A stretch of 64,000 nucleotides of DNA from NCBI GenBank assembly GCA_913009335.1, contig CAJVXN010000003.1, positions 3,899 through 67,898 on the forward strand. The letters are read 5' to 3'. The position numbers were made by a program, and so were the translations under genes. Source of the DNA: an uncultured bacterium (lineage in GTDB: Bacteria; Omnitrophota; Gorgyraeia; Ghiorseimicrobiales; Ghiorseimicrobiaceae). Shown here piece by piece: positions 13,901 to 40,166 of this stretch (position 1 is the stretch's first letter; each line of letters starts with the position of its first letter). Below the pieces are notes generated by a model. The model was given only the letters and a program-made list of their open reading frames with translations, was not told the DNA's origin and did not search any database.

Positions 13901-14335
13901 TTATTCCAATACTGAATCACCAGCAACAGGAGTCTGATCCTCAGTATCATTGTATTTTATGACCCCGCTAGTATCAACAAAGAAATTCCTTGCTCCAGTT
14001 TGTGCCCAATCAGTAGGCATAGCAGTAGCAGTAAAAGAATTAGTTCCTCCTGCAAGAACAAAAGTATATCCCTGCTTTGTTCCATTCCCTAAAACATCAT
14101 CGATGTATGGAGGAGTTTCATTAGGAGAAGCCAAAGAAGCCAACAGTACAGGATAACTCGTGTTAGCCCCTCTATAACTCTGCGCTGCCGTTGAAACAGT
14201 ATGTAGACCGGCTACCGCAGCTGATTGGTTAGCATTTACTCTCGCACGCAATAGGTTAGGTATCGCTATAGCGGCTAATAAAACGATGATCGCAACTACG
14301 ATCATGATTTCAACTAACGTAAAACCTTTTTTCAT
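13901..14335 (-). CDS. Type IV major pilin (PilA-like)
   Basis: MKKG^FTLVEIMIVVAIIVLLAAIAIP canonical class-III signal; 144 aa; strong RBS GGAGG; consensus-like promoter upstream. Confidence 0.75.
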   Translation of the reverse strand: MKKGFTLVEIMIVVAIIVLLAAIAIPNLLRARVNANQSAAVAGLHTVSTAAQSYRGANTSYPVLLASLASPNETPPYIDDVLGNGTKQGYTFVLAGGTNSFTATAMPTDWAQTGARNFFVDTSGVIKYNDTEDQTPVAGDSVLE

Positions 14336-14504: not shown

Positions 14505-15016
14505 AAGAAAAAATAAATGAAACCACAACTTATGTCGCTGTATTCCATAAGTTGTATGGCTGAATTTACCCCGCCGTTGGCGGGGTTTAATTCGCAGACG
14601 CCCTTTTGGCTTTAACTTATACCGCTTACGCTCCATAAGTCATCTGCTCATTAAAAAACCCATTCGAAAGAATGGGTACAAGTTTAACGGATTCACCAAT
14701 TTAGTGAATACGGCAACCCGACAATCATATCCCTTAATAGCTAAAAGACTTAGACTCGCGGCTTTGTGCCCTATCCTTTCAGATAGTTTACCTTTGCCTT
14801 TAGAGATATTAAATACCTTATATTCTATAATAATACCGTCTAGCCTAAACGCTAGATTATTGAAACTTACTATTACCTCTAAAGAACAATACATATAACT
14901 TACTTATCAAAGAACTCACTTTTCCTATTACAAATATAGCATACAAACTTGCTAATTTCAAGGTCGATAGAGAATAAAAAGTTGTGTTGCATCCGGTTGA
15001 GGCTAAACCTCAACCG

Positions 15017-21423: not shown

Positions 21424-24174
21424 TTATTTAATCGCGTCTATACATCTACCGCACACTGAATTGCCATACGAATCTTTTTTAATATCTACGCTCCAATTCC
21501 AACACCTTACGCATTTTTCTCCATCGGCCTTATCTACTTCCACCTTAAATTCATCCCCCCTGCCAATAGAAACTGCCGATGTAATAAACATGGCTGGTAA
21601 ATCATCTAAATATTTCTCAAAAAAACTATATTCTTCGTCTTTATCAAAATAAAGCTTAACTTTTGCCTCCAAGGAACTCTTAATTATACCATTGATTCTA
21701 TTTTCTTCAAGTATTTTTAAGACTGTATCCCTGCGAATGATAATACGGGCAAAGTTCTTCTCTAAGTCAGGATTTATATACTCTTTTTTAACCTCCGGCC
21801 AGGATGTCAAATGTACAGATTCTGAAACTTCCGGGGTTTTATCCTTAAAACTCTGCCATATCTCTTCTGCCGTATAAGACAATATAGGCGCTATTGTCTT
21901 TGTGATAACAAGCAATATCTCAAATAAAGCAGTTTGTGCGCTTCTTCGCCCCAAAGACGCATCTTTAAACGTATACAGCCTATCCTTAAGTATATCCAGA
22001 TAAAATGAGCTTAAATCCACAATACAAAAATTATATATAGCATGATATAAAGAGTAAAAATTAAATTTCTCATAATTTGAATTTATCTCACCTAATAGGC
22101 TATGCGTGCGCGAAAGCGCCCACTTATCCAAAAGAAGCATCTTATCATAATCAACAGAATCGCACTGAGAATCAAAATCGTCTAAATTACCCAATAAAAA
22201 TCTCACTGTATTTCTTATCTTTCGATACGCCTCAGACATACGCGCGATTATCTCATCGGATATGCGTATATCTTCCTTATAATCGCTCGATGCCACCCAC
22301 AACCTTAGGATATCCACGCCGTACTTCTCAATAATATCCTGAGGTGCGACAACATTACCAACGGATTTTGCCATCTTTCTGCCATTGCTATCAACAACAA
22401 ACCCGTGTGTTAATACGCTTTTAAAAGCCGGCTTTCCCTCAATCGCTACAGAAGGAATAAGCGAAGACTGAAACCACCCTCTATGCTGATCGGACCCTTC
22501 CAGATATAAATCCGCCGGAAACGCTAAATTTTCTCTTGCCTTTAACACTGCCTGATGACTTACCCCCGAATCAAACCATACATCAAGAATATCATTACCT
22601 TTTTTAAAAGTAGATCCGCCGCATCCGGGACATTTAAAATCTTTAGGAACCAAATCCTCCACATTACGAATAAACCATGCATCACTGCCCTCGTTTGCTA
22701 CTATCTCCGAAAAGTTATTGATAACTTCCGGATACAACCCTTCCTTGCGACACCCTTCACAATAAATTGACGGAATAGGTACTCCCCATAATCTTTGCCT
22801 GGATAGACACCAATCGGGCCTATTCTCTACCATAGTAGTAATTCTCTTCTCTCCTGAGGCAGGCACCCAGTTTATCTTTTTTATAGAATCCAATACTTTC
22901 TTTCTTAAGTCTTTATGATCAATCTTTAAAAAATACTGTTCTGTGGCGCGAAAAATAACAGGATTCCTGCATCTCCAGCAATGCGGATAAGAATGATTAA
23001 TTTGAGATTGCTCAAGTAGCGCATTCTTCTCTTTTAATTTATCAATTATAATCTTATCAGCTTTATGTACGTTTAGCCCCCGGATAAAATCAGGTACGTC
23101 TTCATTAAATTGGCCCTTATTATCTACGGGCATAACAACGTCTAAGTTATATTTTAACCCGGTTAAATAATCTTCCTGCCCATGTCCGGGCGCGGTATGC
23201 ACACAACCAGTTCCTTCTTCAGCCGATACATAATCAGCCAGAACCACTTTACCTTCTCTATCAATAAAAGGATGCTCATATTTTAATCCGTCTAAATCAC
23301 TACCTTTAAACGTACCTATTTTTTTATAATCTTTTACGATCCCGGAATTAACTAAAGTTTCAAGGCGAGACTCTGCCAGAAAAAGCGTAGCAGCACCTAT
23401 TTTAATACTAACATAACTTAAATCAGGGCCAACAGCAATCGCAACATTAGCCGGCAATGTCCAAGGCGTAGTCGTCCAGATAAGTAAATAGTGTTTGCCA
23501 TCGCCAAACTCACCGTCTTTAATCCTAAACTTAACAAATACCGAATTTGAACTATGTTCACTATAGATAACTTCTGCCTCAGCAAGTGCCGTCTCACATT
23601 GATAACACCAGTTAACCGGTTTAAACCCACGATATATATAGCCCTTCTCGACTAAATTTGCTAAAGATTTTAAGATATCTTTTTCATACTGCGGAATTAA
23701 AGTAAGATACGGCTTATCCCACTCACCCAGAATCCCTAATCTTATAAATTCTTTTTTCTGCACGTTAACAAACTTAGAAGCATACTTTTTTGCCTTCCTT
23801 CTAAATTCTACCTGATCAACCTCATGCTTAGTAAGCCCCATCTCCTTAAACAAACTATATTCTACCGGCAGGCCGTGACAATCCCATCCGGGAACATAAG
23901 GCGCATCGAATCCCTGCATGGTTCTAAATTTTATAACTATATCTTTTAATATTTTGTTTAACGCGTGCCCTATATGAATATTGCCGTTAGCATAGGGAGG
24001 CCCGTCATGTAAGATATATTTAGGACTTCCTTTTCGTTTTTTACGGATTAATCCATAGAGATCCATTTTATTCCAGGAAGATAAAATCGCAGGCTCGCGT
24101 TGAGCGAGATTTGCCTTCATGGGAAAACTCGTCTTAGGAAGATTTAAAGTAGATTTATAATTTATCTTGTCCAT
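21424..24174 (-). CDS. ileS: Isoleucine--tRNA ligase
   Basis: 916 aa; HIGH motif (PPYANGNIHIGHAL), KMSKS variant (KMAKSVGN), C-terminal CxxC...CxxC zinc finger. Confidence 0.9.
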   Translation of the reverse strand: MDKINYKSTLNLPKTSFPMKANLAQREPAILSSWNKMDLYGLIRKKRKGSPKYILHDGPPYANGNIHIGHALNKILKDIVIKFRTMQGFDAPYVPGWDCHGLPVEYSLFKEMGLTKHEVDQVEFRRKAKKYASKFVNVQKKEFIRLGILGEWDKPYLTLIPQYEKDILKSLANLVEKGYIYRGFKPVNWCYQCETALAEAEVIYSEHSSNSVFVKFRIKDGEFGDGKHYLLIWTTTPWTLPANVAIAVGPDLSYVSIKIGAATLFLAESRLETLVNSGIVKDYKKIGTFKGSDLDGLKYEHPFIDREGKVVLADYVSAEEGTGCVHTAPGHGQEDYLTGLKYNLDVVMPVDNKGQFNEDVPDFIRGLNVHKADKIIIDKLKEKNALLEQSQINHSYPHCWRCRNPVIFRATEQYFLKIDHKDLRKKVLDSIKKINWVPASGEKRITTMVENRPDWCLSRQRLWGVPIPSIYCEGCRKEGLYPEVINNFSEIVANEGSDAWFIRNVEDLVPKDFKCPGCGGSTFKKGNDILDVWFDSGVSHQAVLKARENLAFPADLYLEGSDQHRGWFQSSLIPSVAIEGKPAFKSVLTHGFVVDSNGRKMAKSVGNVVAPQDIIEKYGVDILRLWVASSDYKEDIRISDEIIARMSEAYRKIRNTVRFLLGNLDDFDSQCDSVDYDKMLLLDKWALSRTHSLLGEINSNYEKFNFYSLYHAIYNFCIVDLSSFYLDILKDRLYTFKDASLGRRSAQTALFEILLVITKTIAPILSYTAEEIWQSFKDKTPEVSESVHLTSWPEVKKEYINPDLEKNFARIIIRRDTVLKILEENRINGIIKSSLEAKVKLYFDKDEEYSFFEKYLDDLPAMFITSAVSIGRGDEFKVEVDKADGEKCVRCWNWSVDIKKDSYGNSVCGRCIDAIK

Positions 24175-24181
24175 ATATTTT

Positions 24182-25039
24182 CTACATATACTTTCCGATA
24201 ATAATATCCAGGTCTTTCTTTGTTTTTTTTGGCACTACATCTTTATTGGTAACGATTGCGTATTTTAACGCGTTCTTGCATTTACAATCCGCGTTATCGG
24301 GCAAATCTCTCACCACCTGCCTTATTATCTTTTTCGCATTTCCCACATTCTCTGTAAGATTCCGCATTACCATTTCAACTGTTACGTTATCATGATTCGG
24401 ATGCCAGCAGTCATAATCAGTAACAGCGGCAAGTGTAGAGTAGCACATCTCGGCCTCACGGGAAAGACGTGCCTCGGCAATATTAGTCATTCCGATGATA
24501 GATGCTCCCCAGGAACGATAAAGATTTGACTCTGCCTTTGTAGAAAAAGCCGGACCTTCCATATTAATATATGTTCCCTTTGGATGCGTCTTAATATTAA
24601 GTTTTTCTGCAGATGATAAAATAATCTTTGATAGATTTAAGCATATTGGATCAGCAAACCCAACATGAGCTACAATACCTTCATCAAAGAATGTCATCAC
24701 TCTCCCCCTATTACTCCTATCAATGAATTGATCAGGTAAAACAAAATCCATAGGGGCCATTTCATCCTTTAAGCTCCCGCAGGCAGAAACAGAAAGTATG
24801 CATTCAACGCCTAACTTCTTCATGCCGAAAATATTAGCCTGATAGTTTATCTTACTGGGTGAAATTTTATGACCCTTACCGTGCCGTGGTAAAAATACCA
24901 CCTCTTTCCCTTCCAGCTCGCCGGTGATGTATTCATCGGAAGGCGAGCCAAAGGGTGTGGCAACCTTAACAGATTTTACTTTCTTAATTCCTTCTATGTC
25001 ATACAACCCGCTTCCGCCGATAATACCGATTTTTGACAT
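24182..25039 (-). CDS. mtnP: S-methyl-5'-thioadenosine phosphorylase / purine nucleoside phosphorylase family
   Basis: MSKIGIIGGSGLYD N-terminus; PRHGKGH and SVSACGSL motifs. The track ORF extends to 25117, but MSKIG at 25039 is the likelier start. Confidence 0.7.
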   Translation of the reverse strand: MSKIGIIGGSGLYDIEGIKKVKSVKVATPFGSPSDEYITGELEGKEVVFLPRHGKGHKISPSKINYQANIFGMKKLGVECILSVSACGSLKDEMAPMDFVLPDQFIDRSNRGRVMTFFDEGIVAHVGFADPICLNLSKIILSSAEKLNIKTHPKGTYINMEGPAFSTKAESNLYRSWGASIIGMTNIAEARLSREAEMCYSTLAAVTDYDCWHPNHDNVTVEMVMRNLTENVGNAKKIIRQVVRDLPDNADCKCKNALKYAIVTNKDVVPKKTKKDLDIIIGKYM

Positions 25040-25181
25040 TTTTACTCCTTTAATAAATGCATAACTCACAGAAACGAAATTAACATAAATTATACGCGTG
25101 AATTGAATCCTTAACATCGTTCATGTCAAAGATAAATTTAGCCATCAAACTTACAAACCTATCGTTTCGTAAGTTTGGGCT

Positions 25182-26018
25182 TCATTTAGATAATTCTTTA
25201 GCACGTTTAAGAGCTACCTTTGCGGCATCTTCTAATGAGCCCCCTCTATGTAAAACTTCTAAACCCGCCTCCGTTGTGCCGCCTTTTGATGTAACCTGTT
25301 TCCTTAATTCCAGCGGCGTAATATTTGACTGCTCAAGAAAAGAAAAACTTCCATAACCCGTAGAATCCGCTAATTTCTTCGCTTCCTCCTTGGTAAAATC
25401 TAAAGATTCTGCTGCTGCTCTCAAAGAAGGAATAAAATCGCTTATTAAATACTCTTTGGCCTCTTTTATTTCTTTGCCCTCAATCAAATCATAATAATAA
25501 CCCGGGCCGCTGCCGGATATAGCGGTCGCAGCATCCATCTTATCCTCATTTAAAACTAATGTATCCCCTAGATTATCAAATAATTCTTGTGCGAATTTAA
25601 GATCTTCCTCTTTTGCAAACTCACCTTTACATAAACAGCTCATCCCCATAGCAATCCTAGCCGGTAAATTTGGCATTACTCTGACTACACGTATCTCTTC
25701 ACCAAAGCATTTACTAATATAAGTTGTCGTTATCCCGGCGGCAATAGAAATAATTATCTTATTCTTTATATAATTTCCTGCTTCTTTTAGTTCTTTTAAA
25801 ATATCAGTAAAGTCCTGCGGTTTAACCGCTAAAATTATCACATCAGCTTCATTACCTAAATCAATTATATCCCCAGCAATGTTTATTTTTGTAAGACCCT
25901 TGATCTTATCCTTATCCTTATCAAAGACCCAAACTTCATGCTTTAATTTAATCTGCTCGGCAATAGCTGAACCCATAAACCCAAAACCGATAATACCTAT
26001 TTTTTTTACAATACTCAT
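25182..26018 (-). CDS. proC: Pyrroline-5-carboxylate reductase
   Basis: KIGIIGFGFMGSAIA Rossmann N-terminus and C-terminal P5CR signature TSKGGTTEAGLEVL. Confidence 0.8.
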   Translation of the reverse strand: MSIVKKIGIIGFGFMGSAIAEQIKLKHEVWVFDKDKDKIKGLTKINIAGDIIDLGNEADVIILAVKPQDFTDILKELKEAGNYIKNKIIISIAAGITTTYISKCFGEEIRVVRVMPNLPARIAMGMSCLCKGEFAKEEDLKFAQELFDNLGDTLVLNEDKMDAATAISGSGPGYYYDLIEGKEIKEAKEYLISDFIPSLRAAAESLDFTKEEAKKLADSTGYGSFSFLEQSNITPLELRKQVTSKGGTTEAGLEVLHRGGSLEDAAKVALKRAKELSK

Positions 26019-26030
26019 AACTTTTATCTT

Positions 26031-26732
26031 TTATTTAAAAATTGCTCTGCCTACTCTTACAATGGTTGAACCCTCCTCAATCGCAACTCCGTAATCCTGG
26101 GTCATCCCCATAGAAAGAACATCTAATCGTGCCTGATGTTTTTTAACCAGGCAATTATTAATTTTATCCTTAAGTAACCTTAATGCCTTAAAATATTTAC
26201 GCGAGTCTTCGCAAGCTTCAGAGAAGGGAGCCATGGTCATTAACCCCTTAAGACGCATATTATCCATGCTTAAAATATGTTGCGCTAAATCTAATGTTTC
26301 CTTCTCCCTCACTCCGCATTTTGTTGCTTCATTCGATAAATTAACCTCAATCAATACATCCTGGATTTTATCTTTTTTTTCAGCCTGCTTATCTATTTCT
26401 TCTGCCAGGCGCAGACTATCCACTGAATGAATCAAATCGAAAATCTCAACTACTGTCTTTACTTTATTAGTCTGCAAGTGGCCGATCATATGCCACGAAA
26501 TGAGATCGACAAGACAATGATCATTAGATAACGCCTGATATTTTTTAAGAGTATCCTGAACTTTATTCCCGCCAAGGCTAGACAGACCGAAATCAATCGC
26601 TTCTTTAATCTGCCCTACTTCTGCCTGCTTGATAACCGCAAGAAGTGTAACCTCGCCTGGGTCTCTTGCGAACTTTTTACAAATAGAAGATATATCGTTA
26701 GAAATACGTAAGATATTCTCTTTTACGGTCAT
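26031..26732 (-). CDS. YggS-family pyridoxal-phosphate homeostasis protein
   Basis: 233 aa alanine-racemase-fold N-terminal domain; LLAVIKQ (PLP Lys) and HMIGHLQTNKVK motifs. Confidence 0.8.
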   Translation of the reverse strand: MTVKENILRISNDISSICKKFARDPGEVTLLAVIKQAEVGQIKEAIDFGLSSLGGNKVQDTLKKYQALSNDHCLVDLISWHMIGHLQTNKVKTVVEIFDLIHSVDSLRLAEEIDKQAEKKDKIQDVLIEVNLSNEATKCGVREKETLDLAQHILSMDNMRLKGLMTMAPFSEACEDSRKYFKALRLLKDKINNCLVKKHQARLDVLSMGMTQDYGVAIEEGSTIVRVGRAIFK

Positions 26733-26866
26733 TTAATGAAACCATAGCTTACGAACACGAAAGTGTGAGTAAGTTATTTGGTCGAATTAAACCCCGCCAT
26801 CGGCGGGGTACATCCTTTTAGACCCAATCCAGTCATACCATAATAACATAACTTCTAATATGGTCA

Positions 26867-26988
26867 ACCCCGTTAGAGATAGGTCGTCTTTGGACGACCG
26901 TATATTTATCGAAAACTTTATATAAACTCTGTGCTTCTTAATCAGGAACTACCGCACTAAATAGTTTAGCTGTTATCTCTAACGGGGT
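26867..26988. repeat. MITE-like copy C of the ACCCCGTTAGAGATA inverted-repeat family
   Basis: IRs at 26867-26881 and 26972-26988; internal hairpin GGTCGTC...GACGACC next to the left IR; intergenic between yggS and the glutaredoxin gene. Confidence 0.5.
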
Positions 26989-27059
26989 CAATAAAAAGCT
27001 TAAAAAGTAGCTTAAAAACGCCACCCTTGAGCTCACCCTAAACCTTTGCCAAAATTTAT

Positions 27060-27335
27060 TTATCGATTATATGCCGAAAGAATTGCTTGAGAGTTATAGC
27101 CCAAAAAGACCTCTGATCCAACCTTAATAAGTGGCACACCACCGTTGCCACCAAGCTTTTTATATTTTTTCCTACATTCTCTACTTTTTTCTATATCATA
27201 TTTTTTATATTTAATCTTTTCCTTTTTTAAGAATTTCTCTAATTTAGTACAAACCGGGCACCAAGTAGTAACATATATTTCTACATTCTTTCTCGTCTTT
27301 TTTCTGCCTGCCGGATTTTCGGCTGCAGAGACCAT
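27060..27335 (-). CDS. Glutaredoxin-family small redox protein
   Basis: YVTTWCPVCTKLEKFL (CPxC active site) and GGVPLIKVG motif. Confidence 0.55.
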   Translation of the reverse strand: MVSAAENPAGRKKTRKNVEIYVTTWCPVCTKLEKFLKKEKIKYKKYDIEKSRECRKKYKKLGGNGGVPLIKVGSEVFLGYNSQAILSAYNR

Positions 27336-27341
27336 CCCAGT

Positions 27342-27557
27342 CTATATTTTATCTTCTACCTCGCGACTAGCCGAACTCCTCCCCCTTGAAACCTCTACTT
27401 TTACAGCTCTATCGCGATAACGCTCAGGAATATCAGAGACAAAGATAACAAAATGAATTTTTCCCTTATCATCCCTATATTTATATGTATCGGCATAAAT
27501 AACGGAGGGGAAAACTACAAACAATACCAAACATAATATATATATAATAATCCGCAT
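27342..27557 (-). CDS. Small secreted protein, DUF4124-like
   Basis: N-terminal signal peptide; YKYRDDKGKIHF resembles the DUF4124 core. Uncertain. Confidence 0.3.
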   Translation of the reverse strand: MRIIIYILCLVLFVVFPSVIYADTYKYRDDKGKIHFVIFVSDIPERYRDRAVKVEVSRGRSSASREVEDKI

Positions 27558-27616
27558 ATTTAGGCACTATAACATAATTAAACACACAGCACAAAATAGC
27601 TAAAAATAACAGAAAC

Positions 27617-28873
27617 CTAAAAATAATCGCTATATATACCTTTTAGCCTCGCTGAGATATACGTCAGAAGATTTGTATCTTTAGATCTAAATATGGTAAA
27701 CTTATTGCTTTTAGTCATATCCAAGCCATAATGCAATAAACCGATAGCAGAAGCAAAGCCAACAGCTCTATTAGAAGATTTAAGCAAATTTTTACCTCGA
27801 AAACCCTCTACCTTAGGAATACCCAGTTTAACCGAGACGCCCAAAACAGACTCAGCCAACTCCAGCAAACCATCCAACAAACTGCTACCGCCGGTTATAA
27901 TCACAGAATAACCTCTACCTGAAAGATAAGAACTCGAATCAATCTTTTCTTTTAAACGCGTAAGTAACTGAGTAACTTCCGGTTCGATTACGCTGGAAAT
28001 AACCCTACGCCGAATAGGCTGATACGAATCATCCTTTTTTATCATCACTTCTTCTTCGGCGTCTATATCTTGGCTTATAGCGCTCCCATAAGCATCCTTT
28101 ATCTCTTCTGCCAGGTTGCGGGGAAGATTTAGAACATCGCAGATTCCGGAAGTAATATTATTACCACCGTAAGCTAAAACATCACAAAAACGTAAGTTAG
28201 CGTCCTTAAAAATAAGAAGATGCGTAAGGTCCGCTCCGATATCAACCAAAACACAACCCTCTTCCTTTTGCTTCTTATCCAATACCGCAAGCGATGAAGC
28301 CAGGCCTGAAAATACCAAAGACTCAATTTCAAGGCCTGCCTGATTAATTAATTTTGCGATATTTTCAATATGATTAATTGAACTCACCGCCAGATATAAA
28401 TCCGCGGCTATCTTATGCCCGTATAAACCCTTGGGATTTAACACTTGGTTATGATCATCTAAAATATAACGATAAGCAAAATCATGTATTATCTCCTCCC
28501 CTAATTTTACATTTAGCGAACGAGCATAGGAATTAACCAAATTTATGTCTGCCTGGGTTACGACTTTATTGCCTCTGTCTGTAAGCGGCGTAACCGCATT
28601 AGCATTGCGAAAAACCAAATCTTTACCGCCTATATTCACATATACACGTTTTATCTTACGGTTTATTTTATTTTCTAATTTTGCTATTAGCTGCTTTAAG
28701 ACGAGCGTTGCTTTGGATATATCCGTAACAACGCCGCCTCTGACTCCCGAATTTTTAGCCTCAACATGCTCAAAACGATAAAAATTTCCCCGTCCGTCCA
28801 CAAGAGATACGACAGCCTTAAATTTACTTGATCCTAAATCTATACCGCAAATTACCTTATCGCGTTTTAGCAT
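27617..28873 (-). CDS. ftsA: Cell division protein FtsA
   Basis: Actin-like ATPase: ICGIDLGSSKFKAVV phosphate-1 motif, VDIGADLTHL and IITGGSSLL phosphate-2/adenosine motifs. Confidence 0.85.
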   Translation of the reverse strand: MLKRDKVICGIDLGSSKFKAVVSLVDGRGNFYRFEHVEAKNSGVRGGVVTDISKATLVLKQLIAKLENKINRKIKRVYVNIGGKDLVFRNANAVTPLTDRGNKVVTQADINLVNSYARSLNVKLGEEIIHDFAYRYILDDHNQVLNPKGLYGHKIAADLYLAVSSINHIENIAKLINQAGLEIESLVFSGLASSLAVLDKKQKEEGCVLVDIGADLTHLLIFKDANLRFCDVLAYGGNNITSGICDVLNLPRNLAEEIKDAYGSAISQDIDAEEEVMIKKDDSYQPIRRRVISSVIEPEVTQLLTRLKEKIDSSSYLSGRGYSVIITGGSSLLDGLLELAESVLGVSVKLGIPKVEGFRGKNLLKSSNRAVGFASAIGLLHYGLDMTKSNKFTIFRSKDTNLLTYISARLKGIYSDYF

Positions 28874-29038: not shown

Positions 29039-29869
29039 TTATTGGGTACCCGTAACAGGATCCTGAAACCTTAAATCAATATACTTTATCTTTTTTAAAT
29101 TCGATCTTATCTTCGGCAAAAGCGAAGATAGTATTTTAATCCTTTTTTCAATTTCGTCTTTGCCGATTATTATTTTTATGCGCAATTTGTTTCTACTTGC
29201 GCGCGCAGGTGATACCTTTGAAGGACTGAAAGGACTAACCCTAATTTTAAAGAATATCCCGGATGAATCAGCTATATCAATATGCTCTATAGGATAAATA
29301 CGAAGATTATCCGTTACATTGTATGCTCTTAGAATATTTAAAGCAACATTTAAATCATCATTCTTTAATTTTTGGCCGATATAAAAAATTTTTATCTTAT
29401 CCTTCACTCCAATAATTTCCGGTAATTTTTCATATTTTTCAATAAGGGGCATCTCCAAGATAACCGCTTCGCAATCAACGAAGTACATTTTATCGCGCGC
29501 GCGCTTTTTAGCAGAGATAATTAACGGCAGATTTATTTTCGCGACCGGTAATCTCTCCTCAGCATTTATAACTAATACATTCGGTAAAGAACGTAAGATA
29601 TCTACGCTGCGCAACTTTGGATAATCAAAAAAAAGCCTTTTCTCTATTCTTTCTAAATCAACGCTGAATAAATTCTTGCCTAATAGATAAGACGGCGGCG
29701 CAATATTCGCGCCCCCTCGCATAACAATCCTGCTTATATTAAAGTACGTGGATTTAACCGTCCTTGCCTTTATTAGATAAATAAGTGCTGCGCATACGGC
29801 AACCGCCAGGCATATCAAAATTAAAAACTTAAGCGGATGAAACGTTTTATCTTCTTCTGTTATTCGCAT
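29039..29869 (-). CDS. ftsQ: Cell division protein FtsQ/DivIB (POTRA domain)
   Basis: Single N-terminal TM plus POTRA-like region, between ddl and ftsA. Confidence 0.55.
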   Translation of the reverse strand: MRITEEDKTFHPLKFLILICLAVAVCAALIYLIKARTVKSTYFNISRIVMRGGANIAPPSYLLGKNLFSVDLERIEKRLFFDYPKLRSVDILRSLPNVLVINAEERLPVAKINLPLIISAKKRARDKMYFVDCEAVILEMPLIEKYEKLPEIIGVKDKIKIFYIGQKLKNDDLNVALNILRAYNVTDNLRIYPIEHIDIADSSGIFFKIRVSPFSPSKVSPARASRNKLRIKIIIGKDEIEKRIKILSSLLPKIRSNLKKIKYIDLRFQDPVTGTQ

Positions 29870-30801
29870 GATTTTTTCGCCAATTTTAAAATCTTAAGAC
29901 AGAGCTCGGCAAAGTCGTATCCTTCGGCTGCGGCCGCCCTAGGCAAAAGACTGTTTCGAGTCATTCCGGGAATAGTATTAACTTCCAGGATAATAAGATT
30001 ATTCTTAGAATTCATAATCATATCCACACGGGAAAACCCACAGCACCCCAACGCACGATGCGCTGCGAGAGCACTTTCCTGAACATTTCCATAAACATCT
30101 TTTTCTAAAACTGCCGGTATTATATAATCGGTCAAACCCACCGTATACTTTGCCTGATAATCAAAAAACTTACGTTTTGGGACTATCTCTATAACCGAAA
30201 GCGCCTTTTCATCTAAGATACTCACCGTAAGCTCTCTGCCCTCTATATAATCCTCCATTAAAACCTGATCGTCATATTTAAAAGCATCATCAAGCGCGGA
30301 CTTAATACCCTCTTTAGTTTCTACAATAGTAAGCCCTATGCTTGATCCGGAAGAAACAGGTTTAACCACTAAAGGAAATTCAGCAATACTTGTGATATCA
30401 AAATTATCTTTTTTTAATATCAAAGCATCAGGCACTAATAAACCGCCCTGCTTCATGATATTTCGCGCGGTTATTTTATTTAAGCTTGATTTACTTGCCG
30501 CGACACCCGACCCGGTATAAGGAATATTATTATCACTCAATAACTGCTGTATTGTGCCGTCTTCGCCAAAAGCGCCGTGTAGTGCGATAAAAGCAATATC
30601 AATGCGACTTTTTTTTATTTGCTTAGCGACCTTATCGATGTCACTGTCTTTAATGTCTAAATCAACAACATCCAGGTTTAGTGATTTTAACGCCTCACTC
30701 ACCGCCTTACCTGACCTTAAAGATATCGTACGTTCGTTTGACGGTCCGCCCATTAAAACACCAATTAAACCAAATTCATTTTTGATATTCTCTAGTTCCA
30801 T
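29860..30801 (-). CDS. ddl: D-alanine--D-alanine ligase
   Basis: GGPSNERTISLRSG and FIALHGAFGEDGTIQ motifs; ATP-grasp C-terminus. Confidence 0.85.
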   Translation of the reverse strand: MELENIKNEFGLIGVLMGGPSNERTISLRSGKAVSEALKSLNLDVVDLDIKDSDIDKVAKQIKKSRIDIAFIALHGAFGEDGTIQQLLSDNNIPYTGSGVAASKSSLNKITARNIMKQGGLLVPDALILKKDNFDITSIAEFPLVVKPVSSGSSIGLTIVETKEGIKSALDDAFKYDDQVLMEDYIEGRELTVSILDEKALSVIEIVPKRKFFDYQAKYTVGLTDYIIPAVLEKDVYGNVQESALAAHRALGCCGFSRVDMIMNSKNNLIILEVNTIPGMTRNSLLPRAAAAEGYDFAELCLKILKLAKKSCE

Positions 30802-31724
30802 ATTTTAATTTCCGGAGTCAAAACAATATTAAATTTATTTCTAACCTTCTTCTTGATAAACCGGATAAGCCGTAATACATCACCCGCTTTAGCATTGCCT
30901 TTATTTAAAATAAAATTAGCATGTTTCTCGGAAATACACGCATCCCCTATCATCTTACCTTTTAAGCCGCATAAATCGATAAGACGCCCCGCGCTTATAT
31001 TGCTTTTAGGATTTTTAAAGATACACCCTAAAGACGCAAAGCGTAAGTCCTGAGTACGCCTTCGATAAACCAGATACTCCTTAATGTCTTCTTTGATCTG
31101 TTTTTTGGTCTTTTTAATCAATTTAAAACGCGCGCTTAGAATTATGTATTTTGACAGGTTAGAACGGCGATATCCAAAGATTAAATCTTTTTTATTTATC
31201 CTGCGAATTATTCCCCTATATGTCATAACCGTAATATCTTCTAATAAATTCGCTATGTTCGCCAGGCGTAATTTATTACTTTTTCTCTCCCCCGGCGCCG
31301 CGGGAATTTTAAACGATATGCCCGCATTCATAGAAAGCGCTCCCCCGACCGTTGCCGGAATACCGCTTAAAAACTCTAATCCTCCCAAATCGCACGATGC
31401 GGCCTTTTTTATTAAGAAACTAAGCTTTACTCCCGCCCCGCAGTCAACTATCTGTTTCCCAAATTCTATCCTTTTAAATTCCTTGGCGTTAAGGTTTATT
31501 ACCATCACGTTTATTTTTTTCTTTGCCACCAATATATTACTACCTGCACCTATAATCAATACGGGGATCTTTTTGTCTCTTGCAACTTTTACAGCAGAAC
31601 ATAAATCATTAATACTATCCGGCTCAAACCAAATCCTGGCCCTGCCTCCTATCTTAAAAGTTGAACGCGATTTAAGCGATTCATCAAATTTAATTTTTCC
31701 CGACAATCTTGATAGATAATTCAT
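30792..31724 (-). CDS. murB: UDP-N-acetylenolpyruvoylglucosamine reductase
   Basis: FAD-binding FKIGGRA...LIIGAGSNIL motifs. Confidence 0.8.
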   Translation of the reverse strand: MNYLSRLSGKIKFDESLKSRSTFKIGGRARIWFEPDSINDLCSAVKVARDKKIPVLIIGAGSNILVAKKKINVMVINLNAKEFKRIEFGKQIVDCGAGVKLSFLIKKAASCDLGGLEFLSGIPATVGGALSMNAGISFKIPAAPGERKSNKLRLANIANLLEDITVMTYRGIIRRINKKDLIFGYRRSNLSKYIILSARFKLIKKTKKQIKEDIKEYLVYRRRTQDLRFASLGCIFKNPKSNISAGRLIDLCGLKGKMIGDACISEKHANFILNKGNAKAGDVLRLIRFIKKKVRNKFNIVLTPEIKIWN

Positions 31725-33102
31725 CTGTTAATTTTCCTATATCCCCAGCGCCCAGAGTTATTATTATATCTCCGTGGGATATGATATTTAAAATTCTACT
31801 GACCACCTTATCTTTACGTACGAACTCTATATTTTTCTCTCGCCTTTTTTTTATTTTATCACATAAAACCTCAGCACTTATCCCCTCTATGGGAGCTTCC
31901 CCGGCTGCGTATATGTCAGTGATAATAAGGTGGTCCACATCGCTAAAGCTTTGGGCGAATTCATCCAAAAGATGCTTGGTGCGGCTATAACGGTGCGGTT
32001 GAAATACGGCAATAACTCTCTTATAACCGGTAGCTATGCCCTTGCTAGAATTCCTAAGGCTACTTCCGTTTAGAAGGGGCGCTAATGCAGCTAGGGTCGC
32101 CTTTATCTCCGTAGGATGATGCGCGTAATCATCGATTATTATATATTTATCAGATTTTGCCTTCACCTGAAACCTTCTCTTAATGCCGCGATAATTAAGC
32201 AGGCTTTCGTAAATTACTTTTTTATCTATGCCTAGTTCCAAGCCCAGCGCGATAACGCTCAACGAATTCGATACATTATGCAGTCCCGGAACAGAAAGCT
32301 TAAAATTCCCCACTCGCTTTGCGTTATATATACAATTAAAGCTAGAGCTAAAATATTCCAGGGATACCTTATCGGCGGTAATATCACAACTACTGCCAAA
32401 ACCAAAGGTTATGCTGCGTCTTTTTAGACCATCTAAAATCTTTTTTATATTGACATCATCACCGCATCCGATAATGCATCCGCCCTCTTTAGTTTTTGCG
32501 GCAAATTCAGCGAAACTATCAATCACACGGGAATAATTTTTATAAAAATCCAAATGCTCCGAATCAATATTTGTAATAATGGAATAATCCGGCGCATACT
32601 TTAAAAACGTTCCGTCACTTTCATCGGCTTCTGCTACAAAATATTTACTCGCACCGAGATAAATATTATTATCCCAATTATTTACTATGCCCCCGATAAC
32701 AGCAGTAGGTTCAAAACCCGCGCTTGCCAACATATAAGAAGCAAGCGAAGAAGTAGTTGTCTTTCCGTGAGAACCGACAACTACTATCGAGAAGGTACCC
32801 TTCATCAACTCGGCAAGACATTCCGCCCTCTCTATCACATTAATACCAAGGCCCCTTGCTGTTCTTAATTCTGCATTATCAGCATTAATCGCCGAAGAAT
32901 AAACAACTAAATCAGCGCCACGGATATTTTCAGAATTATGTCCCAGATATATTCTAATCCCCTGATTTTTAAGTGAATCCGTTATACGCGATTTTTTTAT
33001 ATCAGAACCGCTAACAATTATACCTTTACTGCGCAAGATAGAAGCAATCCCGCTCATGCCGATTCCGCCTATACCGATAAAATGTATATGTTTATAATCC
33101 AT
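31690..33102 (-). CDS. murC: UDP-N-acetylmuramate--L-alanine ligase
   Basis: IHFIGIGGIGMSGIA N-terminal motif; Mur ligase P-loop GSHGKTTT. Confidence 0.85.
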   Translation of the reverse strand: MDYKHIHFIGIGGIGMSGIASILRSKGIIVSGSDIKKSRITDSLKNQGIRIYLGHNSENIRGADLVVYSSAINADNAELRTARGLGINVIERAECLAELMKGTFSIVVVGSHGKTTTSSLASYMLASAGFEPTAVIGGIVNNWDNNIYLGASKYFVAEADESDGTFLKYAPDYSIITNIDSEHLDFYKNYSRVIDSFAEFAAKTKEGGCIIGCGDDVNIKKILDGLKRRSITFGFGSSCDITADKVSLEYFSSSFNCIYNAKRVGNFKLSVPGLHNVSNSLSVIALGLELGIDKKVIYESLLNYRGIKRRFQVKAKSDKYIIIDDYAHHPTEIKATLAALAPLLNGSSLRNSSKGIATGYKRVIAVFQPHRYSRTKHLLDEFAQSFSDVDHLIITDIYAAGEAPIEGISAEVLCDKIKKRREKNIEFVRKDKVVSRILNIISHGDIIITLGAGDIGKLTDELSIKIVGKN

Positions 33103-33181
33103 AATAAAGTATCGAAATGAAAGATTTTAAACTTTACTACTCTGACACTAACGAGCGCAGCGAGTGATGACACTCTGACAC

Positions 33182-33988
33182 TTATTCTTTCAGATATTTC
33201 ACCCACTTCTTATTTAAAGCTTCAAGGTCCCGGCAATGGAAGCGCCAGAGAGCAGATTTAAAATCATCACCGTCTCTTAAATCACGGCAGAACCAACCGA
33301 ATATTCCCCTGCCGTACTTTGAGATTATAAAATTAACCACACTCACTGATTCGGCATAAAAAAGCTCTACCTGTTTACGGTCAGTAACCTTGCGCACATC
33401 CATCTTGGTTAATTCCTCAAGCCCTATAAAACTCTCCATTTTTAATGCTCGCTTAACAACCCTGTCTGCCGCGATCCTTTTTGTTCTTTCCTGATAAGAA
33501 GCTACTCCTTCATCTAGCCAGAGAGGAATACGCGTATCGTTTCCAACAAATTCGCGAAAAATAATATGCCCTAATTCATGCGGCAAGAGAGAATCAAAAA
33601 ATCCGGCCATCTGAGGATAGGTCTTGATTATTTTTTGCTGATAGTGCACTACTCCGCCGCTCCATTGCGGCTGATTAGTAGTATTAATAAAATCATCTTT
33701 ATCATCGTATATATAAATTTTCGCCCTATTATCCCAAATCCAGAAATCATACCTGGTAAAACCCAAATTCTGAGTTATCTTGATATAGTGCCGCTCAGCC
33801 TCATCAATTATCTCTTCTATAAAATCATTAGGTACATCTTGAAAATAAACAATAAAATGCTCGCTTTTTTTCTGGCGCCACTTCTTCTCTTTTGCTGAAA
33901 CATCATGCGAGACAACACACAAAGCAAAAAATAGCACAATAAATGCTACAAAAAACTTATATTTCATTTGGATTCCTTTTTTTAACAA
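33182..33988 (-). CDS. Secreted zinc metallopeptidase-like protein (HExxH...E gluzincin motif) inserted between murG and murC
   Basis: Signal peptide (FFVAFIVLFFALCVVSHDVSA); HELGH followed 24 aa later by LDEGVASY. Confidence 0.45.
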   Translation of the reverse strand: MLKKGIQMKYKFFVAFIVLFFALCVVSHDVSAKEKKWRQKKSEHFIVYFQDVPNDFIEEIIDEAERHYIKITQNLGFTRYDFWIWDNRAKIYIYDDKDDFINTTNQPQWSGGVVHYQQKIIKTYPQMAGFFDSLLPHELGHIIFREFVGNDTRIPLWLDEGVASYQERTKRIAADRVVKRALKMESFIGLEELTKMDVRKVTDRKQVELFYAESVSVVNFIISKYGRGIFGWFCRDLRDGDDFKSALWRFHCRDLEALNKKWVKYLKE

Positions 33989-35111
33989 GCATTAATAATT
34001 CATCAGCCAGCCTATTAACGGCTAGAAGAATATTATTATTGTCCAAATCGCGCCCTTCCTTATTACCTGTCTTACTTCGCGTAAATCCTTCCCGAAGCGC
34101 ATCAAGCTTTACAGGATCATTGATAAAATCAACTATATAGCTGCCTAAATTACGGCTATTTAAATTTTTCTCTTCAATCATGAGCGCCTGATTACGCCCG
34201 ACTAGAACTTTCGCATTCGCAAGCTGATGGGCTCCGGCATAAGGATAAGGTATTAAAATAGCCGGCAGCTTAAAATAAGAGATTTCCGAAATCGTTGATG
34301 CCCCTGCCCGGGATATTAATATATCTGCCGCGCTAAACATATAAGAGATTTGATCGGAAAAACCAACTACCTTATTTTTAAAACCCATTTTCGCGTAAGT
34401 TCGCCGCGCTAATTCAAGATCCCTTTGACCGGTAATATGTATAACCTGCAATTTATCATTTTCTATTTGCCCTAATGCCTCTATAAATTTTTCATTTATA
34501 TTATGAGCGCCGGCTGTCCCCCCCATAACTAAAACAGTAAATAATTCACTATCTAACCCCAAATATTCTAAAGCTTTTTTTTTATCCATACGCTTCATCT
34601 GCGGGCGGATAGGATTACCTACTAATACTGTTTTCTTACCTGTGCCCGAATGGGTAAGTGCGGCGAATTTTTTTGTTTCTTCAAAGCTTACCAGTACCTT
34701 TTTTACAAAATAAGATAAGAGGCGGTTCGCGCGCCCCATGGAGACATTCTGCTCATGGATAGCTGCCGGGATTCTTAATATACAGGCTGCCATAACCAGA
34801 GGAAAAGAAGCATAACCCCCAAAACCTATAACAACCTGCGGCTTCTCAAGACGCAAGATATTAAAGCAACTCCCCATTGCCTTAAACAATCTAAATATGC
34901 TCCTAATAAAAGTCATAATAGAATGCGTGTTGATTTTACAATTTGCTATAACATATGTAAGAATATTTTCTTTGGCTAAATTTTCTTTTAATTCCTCATT
35001 GGGGCTAACCAGTAAAATATCGTGAAGTTTTTTTGTCTTTAGATGCAAAATCAGACTAAGGGCCGGATTGATATGCCCGTATGTCCCGCCTGCTGTAACT
35101 ATCACTTTCAT
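33957..35111 (-). CDS. murG: UDP-N-acetylglucosamine--N-acetylmuramyl-(pentapeptide) pyrophosphoryl-undecaprenol GlcNAc transferase
   Basis: MKVIVTAGGTYGHINPALSL N-terminal signature; GT28 C-terminal domain. Confidence 0.85.
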   Translation of the reverse strand: MKVIVTAGGTYGHINPALSLILHLKTKKLHDILLVSPNEELKENLAKENILTYVIANCKINTHSIMTFIRSIFRLFKAMGSCFNILRLEKPQVVIGFGGYASFPLVMAACILRIPAAIHEQNVSMGRANRLLSYFVKKVLVSFEETKKFAALTHSGTGKKTVLVGNPIRPQMKRMDKKKALEYLGLDSELFTVLVMGGTAGAHNINEKFIEALGQIENDKLQVIHITGQRDLELARRTYAKMGFKNKVVGFSDQISYMFSAADILISRAGASTISEISYFKLPAILIPYPYAGAHQLANAKVLVGRNQALMIEEKNLNSRNLGSYIVDFINDPVKLDALREGFTRSKTGNKEGRDLDNNNILLAVNRLADELLMLVKKRNPNEI

Positions 35112-35144
35112 TTTAATTTACCAGCTCCTGGAAAATAACTCTTC

Positions 35145-36263
35145 TTAACTAATCGCAGCCGTCGCATCATTTGCCCTGGAAATATTCAACAGCAGTCCAA
35201 CACAAATCATATCAATTACTAAGGCGGTACCGCCATAACTTATGAAAGGCAAAGGCAATCCCTTTGTCGGTAAAAAACCTATTGAGACCCCTATATTTAT
35301 ACAGGCCTTTAGCGCGATCATAGAAATGATACCCAGACTTAAAAATTTTCCGAAAATATCATTAGCATAGCGAGAAATCAAAGATGTCTGCCAGATAAAA
35401 GCAATAAAAAGTACGATAATCAGAAGTGTGCCTAATAAGCCCAACTCTTCTCCGATTATGGAAAATATAAAATCGGTGTGCGCGGCGGGAAGATAGAATA
35501 ACTTCTGCCTGCTTTGGCCGATACCCAAACCAAAGAGGCCGCCTGAACCCAAAGCAATCTGGGATTGAATAATTTGAAACCCGCTACCTCTAGGATCCAG
35601 CCAGGGATTAAGAAAGGCTAAAATCCTTGCTTTACGATAAGGAACGTTAAATATTAAGAAATGAAGCGCGGGCAGTGCCGACAAAATGCAGAACCCTAGA
35701 TTTGAAAGCCTCACCCCTGCGACAAATAGCATAATAAAGGCAATAGCTATTAAACTCACAGTGCCCCCTAAATCCGGCTGCATTAATATTAAAGACGCCA
35801 TCGCCGCTAAAGCTATCATCGGAGGTAAAAACCCCCGCCAAAAATTATGTATTAAATTTTTATTGCGGGAAATAAAATCCGCTAAATAAACAATCAAGCC
35901 TACCTGCGCTAATTCCGAAGGTTGAAAACTAAAACCAAATATCCGAAACCAACGCCTGGCACCCCCTATCTCTTTACCCACTACTAAAACCAGAATAAGT
36001 AAAAATAAAGAAATACCAAAAATAATCTTGGCGTATTTTTGCAAGATCCGATAATCAAAGGCCATAGCAATAAGCGCAAGAATAAACCCAATACCTAAAT
36101 ATAAAATCTGCTTCTTTAAATAAAAATTTGAATCCCCCAGTTTCTCCCATACATAGATAGAAGACGCGCTGTAAATCATAACTACACCGATACAAATCAA
36201 TATAAACGTTATGAGAAATATCGATATTCGTATGTTGCGCATACTTATTCTTTTATAAGGCAT
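35145..36263 (-). CDS. ftsW: SEDS-family peptidoglycan glycosyltransferase FtsW
   Basis: 10-TM FtsW/RodA/SpoVE family; standard dcw position between murD and murG. Confidence 0.8.
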   Translation of the reverse strand: MPYKRISMRNIRISIFLITFILICIGVVMIYSASSIYVWEKLGDSNFYLKKQILYLGIGFILALIAMAFDYRILQKYAKIIFGISLFLLILVLVVGKEIGGARRWFRIFGFSFQPSELAQVGLIVYLADFISRNKNLIHNFWRGFLPPMIALAAMASLILMQPDLGGTVSLIAIAFIMLFVAGVRLSNLGFCILSALPALHFLIFNVPYRKARILAFLNPWLDPRGSGFQIIQSQIALGSGGLFGLGIGQSRQKLFYLPAAHTDFIFSIIGEELGLLGTLLIIVLFIAFIWQTSLISRYANDIFGKFLSLGIISMIALKACINIGVSIGFLPTKGLPLPFISYGGTALVIDMICVGLLLNISRANDATAAIS

Positions 36264-36284
36264 TGCAATCTCTTAGTTAGCTAA

Positions 36285-37565
36285 TTAGTCCTGTTTCTTT
36301 TTTAGCTGTTTAACTTCTTCTCTAAAAACATTCCCTCTTTGTTCAAAATCGCTAAACATATCAAAGCTTGCGCACATAGGCGAAAGCAAAACACAATCCG
36401 CCTCAAGACTCATGTTGAAGGCCGCATAAACTGCCTTTTTAAGATTTTCGCATTCAATAATCGGCACAATACCTTTATAAGCTTTTTTTATTTTATTCTT
36501 TGCCTCGCCTATCAAAATTAAAACCTTTACCTTGCGCCGCACTAAATCTTTTATACTTTTAAAATCTACCCCTTTATCTTGCCCCCCGGCGATTAAGATT
36601 ACCGGACTATAAATCCTATTTAACGCCCAGGTAGTTGATACGACTGTTGTAGCTTTAGAATCATTAATAAAGCTGACCCCCTCAATCTTATCTATAAATT
36701 CCATACGATGCTCAAGACCCTTAAAATTTTCCAGCGCCTTTAAACAATCAGCTTTAGTTATACCGAATATCTTACCCACGCTTACTGCTGCCGCGTAATT
36801 AGCGTCTAAATTTTTATCATCAGCTGCGAAAAATTTCACCCTGGATTTAACCTCTTTAGCAAGCCTTGCGACTATTGCGTCATTTTTATTAAAAACCGCG
36901 AAATCATTTTTATCTTGATTTAAAAATATACGCTTTTTAGCTTTTAAATAATCATCTAAATCTTTATGACGGTTGAGATGATTAGGGCTAAAATTTAATA
37001 TAACGCAAACCTTCGGCTTAAAATTAAAACAGGCCTCCAACTGAAACGAACTGATCTCTAAAACTACCAAATCACCCTTTTTAACTTTTGCCACTTCTTG
37101 TGAAAAAGGCTTACCGATATTTCCGCAGACATAAGCCTTCTTTGAATTACTGTTTAAAACATGCCCCACCAAAGTAGTAGTGGTAGATTTTCCGCTGGTT
37201 CCCGTAATCGCCACAATCGCAGCGGGACAAACCTGCGAGGCTAACTCAATCTCACTGATTACGGGGATATTTTCAGCGCGCGCCCAATTAAGACACGCCG
37301 CGGTAAGTAAGACTCCGGGGCTTACAACAACTAAATCACAACGCCTGAATAACTCTCTTGAATGCCCGCCTAATTCTACGTCTATTCCTAACCTTTTTAA
37401 TTGCCTGCTATTTTTTCGTATCTCTTTAGTGTCCTTAGAATCACTAACTAATACTTTAGCGCCTAAATCTCTAAGAAGCTTTGCCGCGGATATTCCGCTT
37501 CTTGCTGCCCCCACAACAACTGCTCTTTTGTTTTTAAAATTTGTATTCTTCATTTTTAATACCAA
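36285..37565 (-). CDS. murD: UDP-N-acetylmuramoylalanine--D-glutamate ligase
   Basis: VVVGAARSGISAAKLL Rossmann; GTSGKSTTTTL P-loop. Confidence 0.85.
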   Translation of the reverse strand: MVLKMKNTNFKNKRAVVVGAARSGISAAKLLRDLGAKVLVSDSKDTKEIRKNSRQLKRLGIDVELGGHSRELFRRCDLVVVSPGVLLTAACLNWARAENIPVISEIELASQVCPAAIVAITGTSGKSTTTTLVGHVLNSNSKKAYVCGNIGKPFSQEVAKVKKGDLVVLEISSFQLEACFNFKPKVCVILNFSPNHLNRHKDLDDYLKAKKRIFLNQDKNDFAVFNKNDAIVARLAKEVKSRVKFFAADDKNLDANYAAAVSVGKIFGITKADCLKALENFKGLEHRMEFIDKIEGVSFINDSKATTVVSTTWALNRIYSPVILIAGGQDKGVDFKSIKDLVRRKVKVLILIGEAKNKIKKAYKGIVPIIECENLKKAVYAAFNMSLEADCVLLSPMCASFDMFSDFEQRGNVFREEVKQLKKKQD

Positions 37566-37575
37566 GTTTCTCTTA

Positions 37576-38664
37576 CTACCTTAACTTAAGCGTGATTAGA
37601 GCAAAAATAAGAAATATTATACTTACAATCCAAAAACGGATAATTATCTTAGACTCCTTCCACCCCAACATCTGAAAATGATGATGCAAAGGAGACATCT
37701 TAAAAATTCTCTTACCGGTTGCCTTAAACCAGATTACCTGAATTATCACAGATAAAACCTCAATAACAAATACCCCGCCTACAAAAATCAAAAGTAATTC
37801 TTTCTTTGTAAGTATGGCTATTGTTCCGATCATACCCCCTAAGGCAAGTGAACCCGTATCACCCATAAAAATATTTGCCGGGTGACAATTAAACCATAAA
37901 AACCCTAAGGCTGCCCCTAATATCGCGGCACAGAAAACAGTAAGTTCTGCCGCCTGAGGTATATGAGAGATTAAAAGGTATTTGCTAAAAACCGCATGCC
38001 CGACAATATAGCTTAAGATAAAATAACAAATTGTCACCATAGTAACGGTGCCTATAGCAAGGCCGTCTAGGCCATCAGTGATATTTACGGCGTTAGAAGT
38101 GGCTACAATCACCAGAATAATAAAAAAGATATAGAAAAACCCTAAATCAATAACTACCTTCTTAAAAAACGGAACATCTAAAACAGTTGAGAATGTACCG
38201 TCAAAAAATAGTATTATCCCTATTATTCCCCCTAAAACTATCTGCCAGAATAATTTTGTCTTACCGGATAAACCCTTGGAGCGGCACTTGGCCAGCTTTA
38301 TATAATCATCGCGAAATCCTAAAGCAGCAAGCCATAACGCGCTCAATAAAGAAATCAAGATATAGCTATTTGCTAAATCCGCCCAGAGTAAAACTGAAAT
38401 ACTAATAGCAAATACTATAAGCAAACCTCCCATTGTGGGCGTACCCTGCTTATGAGGCTGCATTTTATAAAGTGCCAAGCATTCTTCCTTACGAATATTC
38501 TCGCAGACCTTAAGTGAGGCCAACTTTTTTATAATATAAGGCCCAAATATAACACAGACCAAAAAAGAGGTTACTGCCGACATCCCCGCGCGAAAAGTAA
38601 TATAGCGGAAAATATTAAAAGCAGAAAAAACATCCTTCAAAGGGTAAAGAAAATGATAAAACAT
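37576..38664 (-). CDS. mraY: Phospho-N-acetylmuramoyl-pentapeptide transferase
   Basis: PNPT family: ANIFMGDTGSLALGG and DGLDGLA motifs. Confidence 0.9.
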   Translation of the reverse strand: MFYHFLYPLKDVFSAFNIFRYITFRAGMSAVTSFLVCVIFGPYIIKKLASLKVCENIRKEECLALYKMQPHKQGTPTMGGLLIVFAISISVLLWADLANSYILISLLSALWLAALGFRDDYIKLAKCRSKGLSGKTKLFWQIVLGGIIGIILFFDGTFSTVLDVPFFKKVVIDLGFFYIFFIILVIVATSNAVNITDGLDGLAIGTVTMVTICYFILSYIVGHAVFSKYLLISHIPQAAELTVFCAAILGAALGFLWFNCHPANIFMGDTGSLALGGMIGTIAILTKKELLLIFVGGVFVIEVLSVIIQVIWFKATGKRIFKMSPLHHHFQMLGWKESKIIIRFWIVSIIFLIFALITLKLR

Positions 38665-40151: not shown

Positions 40152-40166
40152 TATTAACTCACTAAA

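Follow-up and report, generated by a model that had tools for sequence, protein, structure and literature searches.

The 64-kb stretch of Omnitrophota DNA analysed here, referred to as the window, carries a division and cell wall (dcw) gene cluster that ends at ftsA, with no ftsZ behind it. This ftsZ-less passage from ftsA to yggS is conserved across the phylum and is not a local rearrangement. The observations are probably explained by a phylum-wide loss of ftsZ, in which the other divisome genes were retained together with an FtsA devoid of the residues that hold the FtsZ tail, and division without FtsZ is very likely in the lineage of the window. The absence of ftsZ from Omnitrophota is already published at the level of gene presence or absence. 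For the junction, the decay of the FtsA pocket and the invariant FtsA tail described below we found no description in the literature searched, and the relevant passages of Seymour 2023 and Pende 2021 record presence and absence only.

The ftsA-to-yggS junction

The first-pass annotation of this DNA had noted that no FtsZ-like tubulin signature is present in the 64 kb, and three kinds of search bear this out. With the FtsZ proteins of Escherichia coli and Bacillus subtilis as queries, tblastn against the window gave a best E-value of 3.4. In the six reading frames of the window, the pattern G[GA]G[TS]G[TSA]G had zero matches, and neither Pfam Tubulin nor Pfam FtsZ_C matched any of its open reading frames (ORFs) of at least 100 aa. 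When a chimera of the E. coli and B. subtilis FtsZ proteins, designed to retain just the universal motifs, was used as query against a collection of 5.8 billion proteins, at least 120 matches were listed, which bear enterobacterial names, the name Pseudomonas in one case, or no name, and which are uninformative about an Omnitrophota FtsZ.

The FtsA proteins closest to that of the window are labelled Omnitrophica or Omnitrophota. When an alignment of Omnitrophota FtsAs was run against a collection in which each species is represented by a single genome, 258 relatives were obtained, and the best 80 of these are all metagenome-assembled genomes (MAGs) with an FtsA of the Omnitrophota type; the titles of most of the 80 name Omnitrophota, and a minority have different NCBI labels, among them 'uncultured Planctomycetales', 'uncultured Verrucomicrobiota' and plain 'bacterium'. 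The species of the window is not among the GTDB representatives scanned, and the best FtsA identity was 60%. Judged from the labels of its FtsA relatives, and with Omnitrophota placed in the Planctomycetes-Verrucomicrobia-Chlamydiae (PVC) superphylum, the window organism is a PVC member.

We collected 88 Omnitrophota loci (L001-L088, 1.26 Mb in total) that extend up to 10 kb on each side of ftsA. No FtsZ was found in these loci by tblastn at E-values up to 10, the best value being 1.2. The same queries detected FtsZ at E-values of 1e-76 to 1e-100 in two control loci from outside the phylum (L089 and L090), where ftsA is followed by a gene with Tubulin and FtsZ_C domains. Downstream of ftsA, 1.5 kb of sequence or more is available in 65 of the Omnitrophota loci; 44 of these have yggS-proC-mtnP-ileS directly behind ftsA, and the loci with this direct junction span FtsA identities from 63% to about 32%. 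Assorted unrelated genes lie 3' of ftsA in the remaining 21, none of them FtsZ-like. ORFs of FtsZ size in loci lacking yggS (for example 407 aa in L056 and 366 aa in L048) were considered as candidates and rejected, as by sequence they resemble GlgC, GcvT and similar proteins.

The source of the window is a MAG, and a misjoin or a contig break after ftsA could simulate the loss of a gene at this place. However, the sequence runs without interruption from ftsA past yggS into ileS, and the same junction recurs in assemblies made independently from numerous samples and projects, which leaves an assembly or binning artefact with a practically negligible probability.

A possible origin of the junction is suggested by control locus L090, in which a 76-aa gene and then ileS come after ftsA-ftsZ, an order compatible with the excision of ftsZ from a neighbourhood that was formerly unbroken. 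Because the flanking genes are still joined, we propose that ftsZ was most likely excised from an ancestral ftsQ-ftsA-ftsZ-...-yggS/ileS arrangement. The order in B. subtilis, which we take to be ftsA-ftsZ ... ylmE(yggS) ... divIVA-ileS-ylyA-lspA-rluD, offers a parallel: in the window, ftsA is likewise followed by yggS ... ileS and, past ileS, by a dksA-type zinc-finger gene, lspA, lgt and rluD. The two neighbourhoods differ in that the window lacks ftsZ, sepF and divIVA and has proC and mtnP interposed. By analogy, the Omnitrophota order would resemble an old Firmicutes-type neighbourhood with ftsZ cut out.

FtsA, its FtsZ-tail pocket and its C-terminus

The product of the last dcw gene of the window matches the FtsA model TIGR01174 above the curated threshold (252 bits, cut-off 175.85), combines an actin-like fold with a 1C (SHS2) domain and is encoded after ftsQ, which lies directly upstream of ftsA in related Omnitrophota loci too. 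It can be aligned over its entire length with E. coli FtsA (7q6d). Its AlphaFold2 model has a predicted TM-score (pTM) of 0.74, and the top PDB matches of this model are all FtsA (TMt 0.73-0.80), including the Thermotoga maritima FtsA:FtsZ-peptide complex 4A2A. The 1C region (residues 92-158) is of low confidence in the model; the SHS2 domain is detected by Pfam. Within the phylum, the median pairwise identity of FtsA is 51%. With the canonical FtsA-FtsZ proto-ring, as known from E. coli and T. maritima (4A2A), the window has in common the FtsA fold, the 1C/SHS2 insertion, a predicted C-terminal helix and the place after ftsQ, but no ftsZ follows ftsA and residues D242, R300 and E303 (E. coli numbering) are not conserved.

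These three residues are located in or beside two segments of E. coli FtsA, 234-245 and 294-304, at which the C-terminal tail of FtsZ has been modelled and to which, as cited in the same paper, the FtsZ-interaction mutants of the Pichoff and Lutkenhaus 2007 screen map (PMC10769210). Our alignment comprised 81 FtsAs from Omnitrophota and 48 from elsewhere, the latter including Betaproteobacteria, Bacteroidota and the lineages of L089 and L090. D242 is present in 47 of the 48 other FtsAs and in 0 of the 81 from Omnitrophota (G243 in the window). The corresponding counts are 47/48 versus 4/81 for R300 (E299 in the window) and 43/48 versus 9/81 for E303 (Q302 in the window). Among the columns that are conserved elsewhere, conservation in Omnitrophota drops most at D242 and R300, with E303 in fifth place. 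Mean column entropy amounts to 1.70 bits in the Omnitrophota FtsAs versus 2.05 bits in the comparison set; over all columns, the change in entropy is +0.55 bits in the pocket segments versus -0.41 bits elsewhere (Mann-Whitney p = 1.4e-4). Furthermore, the pocket residues of Omnitrophota are scrambled, with no new conserved set in their place, which suggests release from constraint rather than co-evolution with a changed partner. On the evidence of the alignment, the residues conserved in the FtsZ-tail pocket of other FtsAs have been lost from that of Omnitrophota. The substitution R300E abolishes FtsZ binding in E. coli, and the FtsA of the window carries Glu at this position.

A single FtsA of the comparison set, P0062, also lacks D242 and R300. 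This protein, encoded on a Logan contig of SRR13704952 (L091), comes from outside Omnitrophota and is 26% identical to the FtsA of the window. No ftsZ follows its gene, after which an opposite-strand PAD_porph gene is found. P0062 may represent a second FtsZ-uncoupled FtsA lineage.

At the C-terminus, Omnitrophota FtsAs share the motif [RK]-x-K-E-[VIL]-Y-Q-E-Y-F, in which Tyr, Tyr and Phe are invariant (81/81), whereas no conserved sequence is seen in the tails of other FtsAs. In the FtsA of the window, a helix is predicted for residues 402-417 after a flexible linker, with low values of the predicted local distance difference test (pLDDT) and with a hydrophobic periodicity assessed by eye. 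This predicted helix lies where a membrane-targeting helix would be expected and is a candidate for that role. The conservation of the tail exceeds what a membrane helix would need and hints at a specific partner; the invariant tail may be a docking peptide for such a putative partner.

The nucleotide-binding motifs of Omnitrophota FtsA deviate as well. DIGADxT stands in place of DIGGGT (residues 211-217 in the window), and the second Gly of TGG (E. coli G337) is replaced by R or K in 62/81 Omnitrophota FtsAs; the protein of the window keeps GG (residues 327-329). To judge by these motifs, ATP handling may be altered in the phylum.

Proposed division in the absence of FtsZ

The first-pass annotation had offered two explanations for the missing gene, namely that ftsZ has been relocated or that the lineage divides without it. 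The conserved junction, the published surveys and the FtsA residues favour the latter, our own searches covering the window and up to 10 kb on each side of ftsA in the related loci. In favour of a relocated ftsZ, and with it conventional Z-ring division, are the near-universal occurrence of FtsZ, the retention and conservation of FtsA, its textbook tether, and the limited share of the genome that the window represents. However, Supplementary Note 1 of Seymour 2023 (PMC10066038), a study of 421 genomes that stand for 276 species, reports the Omnitrophota species representatives to be without an ftsZ homolog "except for one occurrence"; that one is 89% identical to an archaeal protein and was attributed by the authors to contamination or recent transfer, so that no genuine ftsZ remains among the representatives. 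Pende 2021 (PMC8178401) lists Omnitrophica among the phyla without FtsZ; in its table, three Omnitrophica genomes have FtsA and neither FtsZ nor SepF, and FtsZ is absent from 4/4 true Omnitrophica genomes. The window belongs to the same phylum and shares the same absence of ftsZ, and in the latter survey also the presence of FtsA without FtsZ or SepF. The scrambled pocket residues speak against a co-evolved FtsZ partner encoded elsewhere, too, and altogether we hold relocation to be quite improbable. As a separate observation on the phylum, the same supplement of Seymour 2023 reports a lineage-wide absence of ftsY and of ribosomal protein L30.

Several points weigh against a phylum-wide loss of ftsZ or against the role of FtsA proposed below. 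PVC reviews credit Omnitrophica with FtsZ (PMC5147048, PMC5945725), which would also favour relocation. This claim traces to "Omnitrophica bacterium OLB16", in which ftsZ adjoins ftsA and which is the only FtsZ-positive 'Omnitrophica'. OLB16 is now placed in the phylum Hinthialibacterota (PMC9324843), and its move out of the phylum removes the contradiction. The published ftsZ absence has been buried in a supplementary note and contradicted by reviews that rely on OLB16. A 2025 paper calls the dcw genes of Omnitrophota 'highly conserved', a statement considered here for the gene set as a whole. Genome-wide absence of ftsZ rests on published surveys of incomplete MAGs, to which our own data add the window and flanks of at most 10 kb. 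As to the pocket, the 48 FtsAs used for comparison form a redundant and phylogenetically unbalanced set, and among the 30 columns best conserved in them those relaxed in Omnitrophota show no significant excess in the pocket (3 of the 10 relaxed columns against 5 of all 30; hypergeometric p = 0.19). As to mechanism, no Omnitrophota bacterium is in pure culture according to Seymour 2023 (PMC10066038). The FtsA-organised divisome outlined below is purely inferential.

FtsZ-like and BtubAB-type families occur in PVC bacteria and elsewhere. Surveys that use canonical FtsZ as a marker could overlook such families, and a tubulin or FtsZ-like protein of highly diverged sequence, encoded in another part of the genome and anchored outside the classical FtsA pocket, might then take the place of FtsZ. 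Yet neither the window nor the 88 loci, which reach up to 10 kb to either side of ftsA, yielded one by tblastn at E-values up to 10, and no match to Pfam Tubulin exists in the window. With no positive evidence in its favour, we consider such a protein very improbable.

Even if FtsZ is absent, division might mainly be driven by MreB-directed peptidoglycan synthesis, similar to Chlamydiae, with FtsA in a minor or repurposed role. In Chlamydiae, FtsK took over the early recruitment role usual for FtsZ. For the orthology identifiers used in the following, we take K03587-K03590 to be ftsI, ftsW, ftsQ and ftsA, K03569-K03571 to be mreB, mreC and mreD, and K03531 to be ftsZ. In line with an MreB-driven division, at least one genome in the annotation table of Seymour 2023 (PMC10066038) is listed with K03587-K03590 and K03569-K03571, and K03531 is missing from its entries, which leaves room for a Chlamydia-like contribution of MreB. 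However, ftsA lies next to ftsQ in the dcw cluster in every locus, and the conservation of FtsA is strong, its C-terminal motif being invariant. This position and conservation point to a central, selected role of FtsA, and we therefore regard division driven mainly by MreB as unlikely.

For loss of ftsZ with retention of FtsA, we envisage the following course. After the excision of ftsZ, selection would keep the lipid II pathway, FtsW/FtsI, FtsQ, the FtsL-like protein and FtsA. FtsA would give up the residues that hold the FtsZ tail and keep its actin-like fold and its C-terminal helix, by which it would attach to the membrane. Membrane-bound FtsA, possibly together with MreB, would then directly organise the FtsQ-FtsL-FtsW-FtsI synthases without a Z-ring, and septal wall synthesis would drive constriction. 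That FtsA is an FtsZ-independent division organiser, which has lost the pocket, gained the invariant K-E-[VIL]-Y-Q-E-Y-F and may scaffold FtsQ/FtsL/FtsW/FtsI at the membrane, has in our estimate about an even chance of being correct.

Under its second explanation, the first-pass annotation had likened the lineage to Planctomycetes and Chlamydiae. This comparison is apt with regard to the lack of FtsZ but inexact otherwise, since those phyla also lost FtsA. Chlamydiota and Planctomycetota belong to the PVC superphylum as well, have no FtsZ and keep parts of the dcw cluster and peptidoglycan genes. They have in addition lost FtsA and FtsB, and their dcw cluster is fragmented, whereas Omnitrophota keep FtsA and a collinear arrangement from mraZ to ftsA. 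Several orders of Planctomycetia have lost most mur genes, while the window retains the peptidoglycan set. FtsZ-independent division has been studied mainly in these two FtsA-less phyla; Omnitrophota provide a third, cleaner case, where the cluster for wall synthesis and the late divisome is intact and collinear and only ftsZ is missing. If the proposed course is true, Omnitrophota would be a transitional stage in the evolution from Z-ring division to the complete lack of FtsZ and FtsA seen in Chlamydiota and Planctomycetota. The orphan FtsA, with its decayed pocket and invariant tail, is open to expression and testing outside its uncultured host.

Gene content of the window

All dcw and flanking genes discussed here lie on the minus strand of the window (Table 1). 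Claims of the first-pass annotation that the dcw cluster is complete and in canonical order, and that ftsA stops at 27617, are both upheld by Pfam and NCBIfam matches and by the position of the stop codon, respectively. The order is mraZ, rsmH, ftsL-like, ftsI, murE, murF, mraY, murD, ftsW, murG, murC, murB, ddl, ftsQ, ftsA, with one extra gene of the Peptidase_MA_2 family. NCBIfam equivalog cut-offs are passed by MraZ, RsmH, MurE, MurF, MraY, MurD, FtsW, MurG, MurC, MurB, Ddl and FtsA, and ftsI is identified by its match to models of class B penicillin-binding proteins. The ftsL-like ORF encodes a membrane protein of 132 aa, for which family searches gave no match.

Table 1. Features of the 64-kb window referred to in the text.
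Feature	Positions	Strand	Basis or remark
mraZ	44947-45381	-	first gene of the dcw cluster
remaining dcw cluster, mraZ to ddl	29860-45381	-	NCBIfam and Pfam
Peptidase_MA_2 gene	33182-33988	-	extra gene between murG and murC; Pfam
ftsQ	29039-29869	-	Pfam POTRA_1 and FtsQ_DivIB_C only
ftsA	27617-28873	-	last dcw gene; Pfam FtsA and SHS2_FTSA, TIGR01174
ftsA stop codon	27617-27619	-	
FtsA C-terminal tail	27617-27680	-	...RLKGIYSDYF
DUF4124 protein gene	27342-27557	-	71 aa, N-terminal hydrophobic segment; PF13511, E 1.1e-6
glutaredoxin gene	27060-27335	-	91 aa, CPVC motif; PF00462, E 6e-12
spacer	26733-27059		327 bp; 15-nt inverted repeat and GC hairpin; strand not assigned
inverted-repeat arms of spacer	26867-26881 / 26974-26988		
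GC hairpin of spacer	26791-26809		terminator-like
yggS, proC, mtnP, ileS	21424-26732	-	NCBIfam TIGR00044, TIGR00112, MTAP models, TIGR00392
yggS	26031-26732	-	TIGR00044
c-di-GMP-I riboswitch	14709-14802	-	72 bits, gathering score 35
GC hairpin	14564-14594		between riboswitch and pilin-like gene
type IV pilin-like gene	13901-14335	-	N_methyl motif
mobile defence island (probable)	about 53300-60400		
727-aa ORF	53370-55553		defence-island region; no Pfam match
large serine recombinase	55567-56979		defence-island region
GmrSD-type endonuclease	57439-58545		defence-island region
HEPN RiboL-PSP protein	58552-59238		defence-island region
DpnI-family endonuclease	59576-60343		defence-island region

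The Peptidase_MA_2 protein has a signal peptide and an HExxH motif (HELGH). Its gene is present between murG and murC in 43/62 Omnitrophota loci and absent from the other 19/62; its product may be a lineage-specific wall-processing component.

In the window itself, two genes and a spacer separate ftsA from yggS. The series that had been assigned to this side of ftsA, namely a DUF4124-like protein, a glutaredoxin, a copy of a miniature inverted-repeat transposable element (MITE), yggS, proC, mtnP and ileS, stands for all its genes by Pfam and NCBIfam; the MITE copy is not supported, as a full second copy of the spacer is missing from the window, where only two fragments of about 30 bp recur. 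One of these fragments is the GC hairpin. The use of the spacer as a MITE probe for further contigs was dropped for the same reason. The inverted repeat of the spacer consists of two perfect 15-nt arms, ACCCCGTTAGAGATA and TATCTCTAACGGGGT, with 92 nt between them, and occurs once in the window. The DUF4124 and glutaredoxin genes had no tblastn match in the 88 related Omnitrophota loci, and these two genes with the inverted-repeat spacer appear to be a recent, lineage-specific insertion at an old junction.

The hairpin recurring in the spacer between glutaredoxin gene and yggS, ACCCCGCC...GGCGGGGT, is found for the other time between a cyclic di-GMP (c-di-GMP-I) riboswitch and the type IV pilin-like gene downstream of this riboswitch. 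Toward the other end of the window, a large serine recombinase, GmrSD-type and DpnI-family endonucleases, a HEPN RiboL-PSP protein and a 727-aa ORF make up a probable mobile defence island, and the GC content falls to 0.315 at 58-60 kb.

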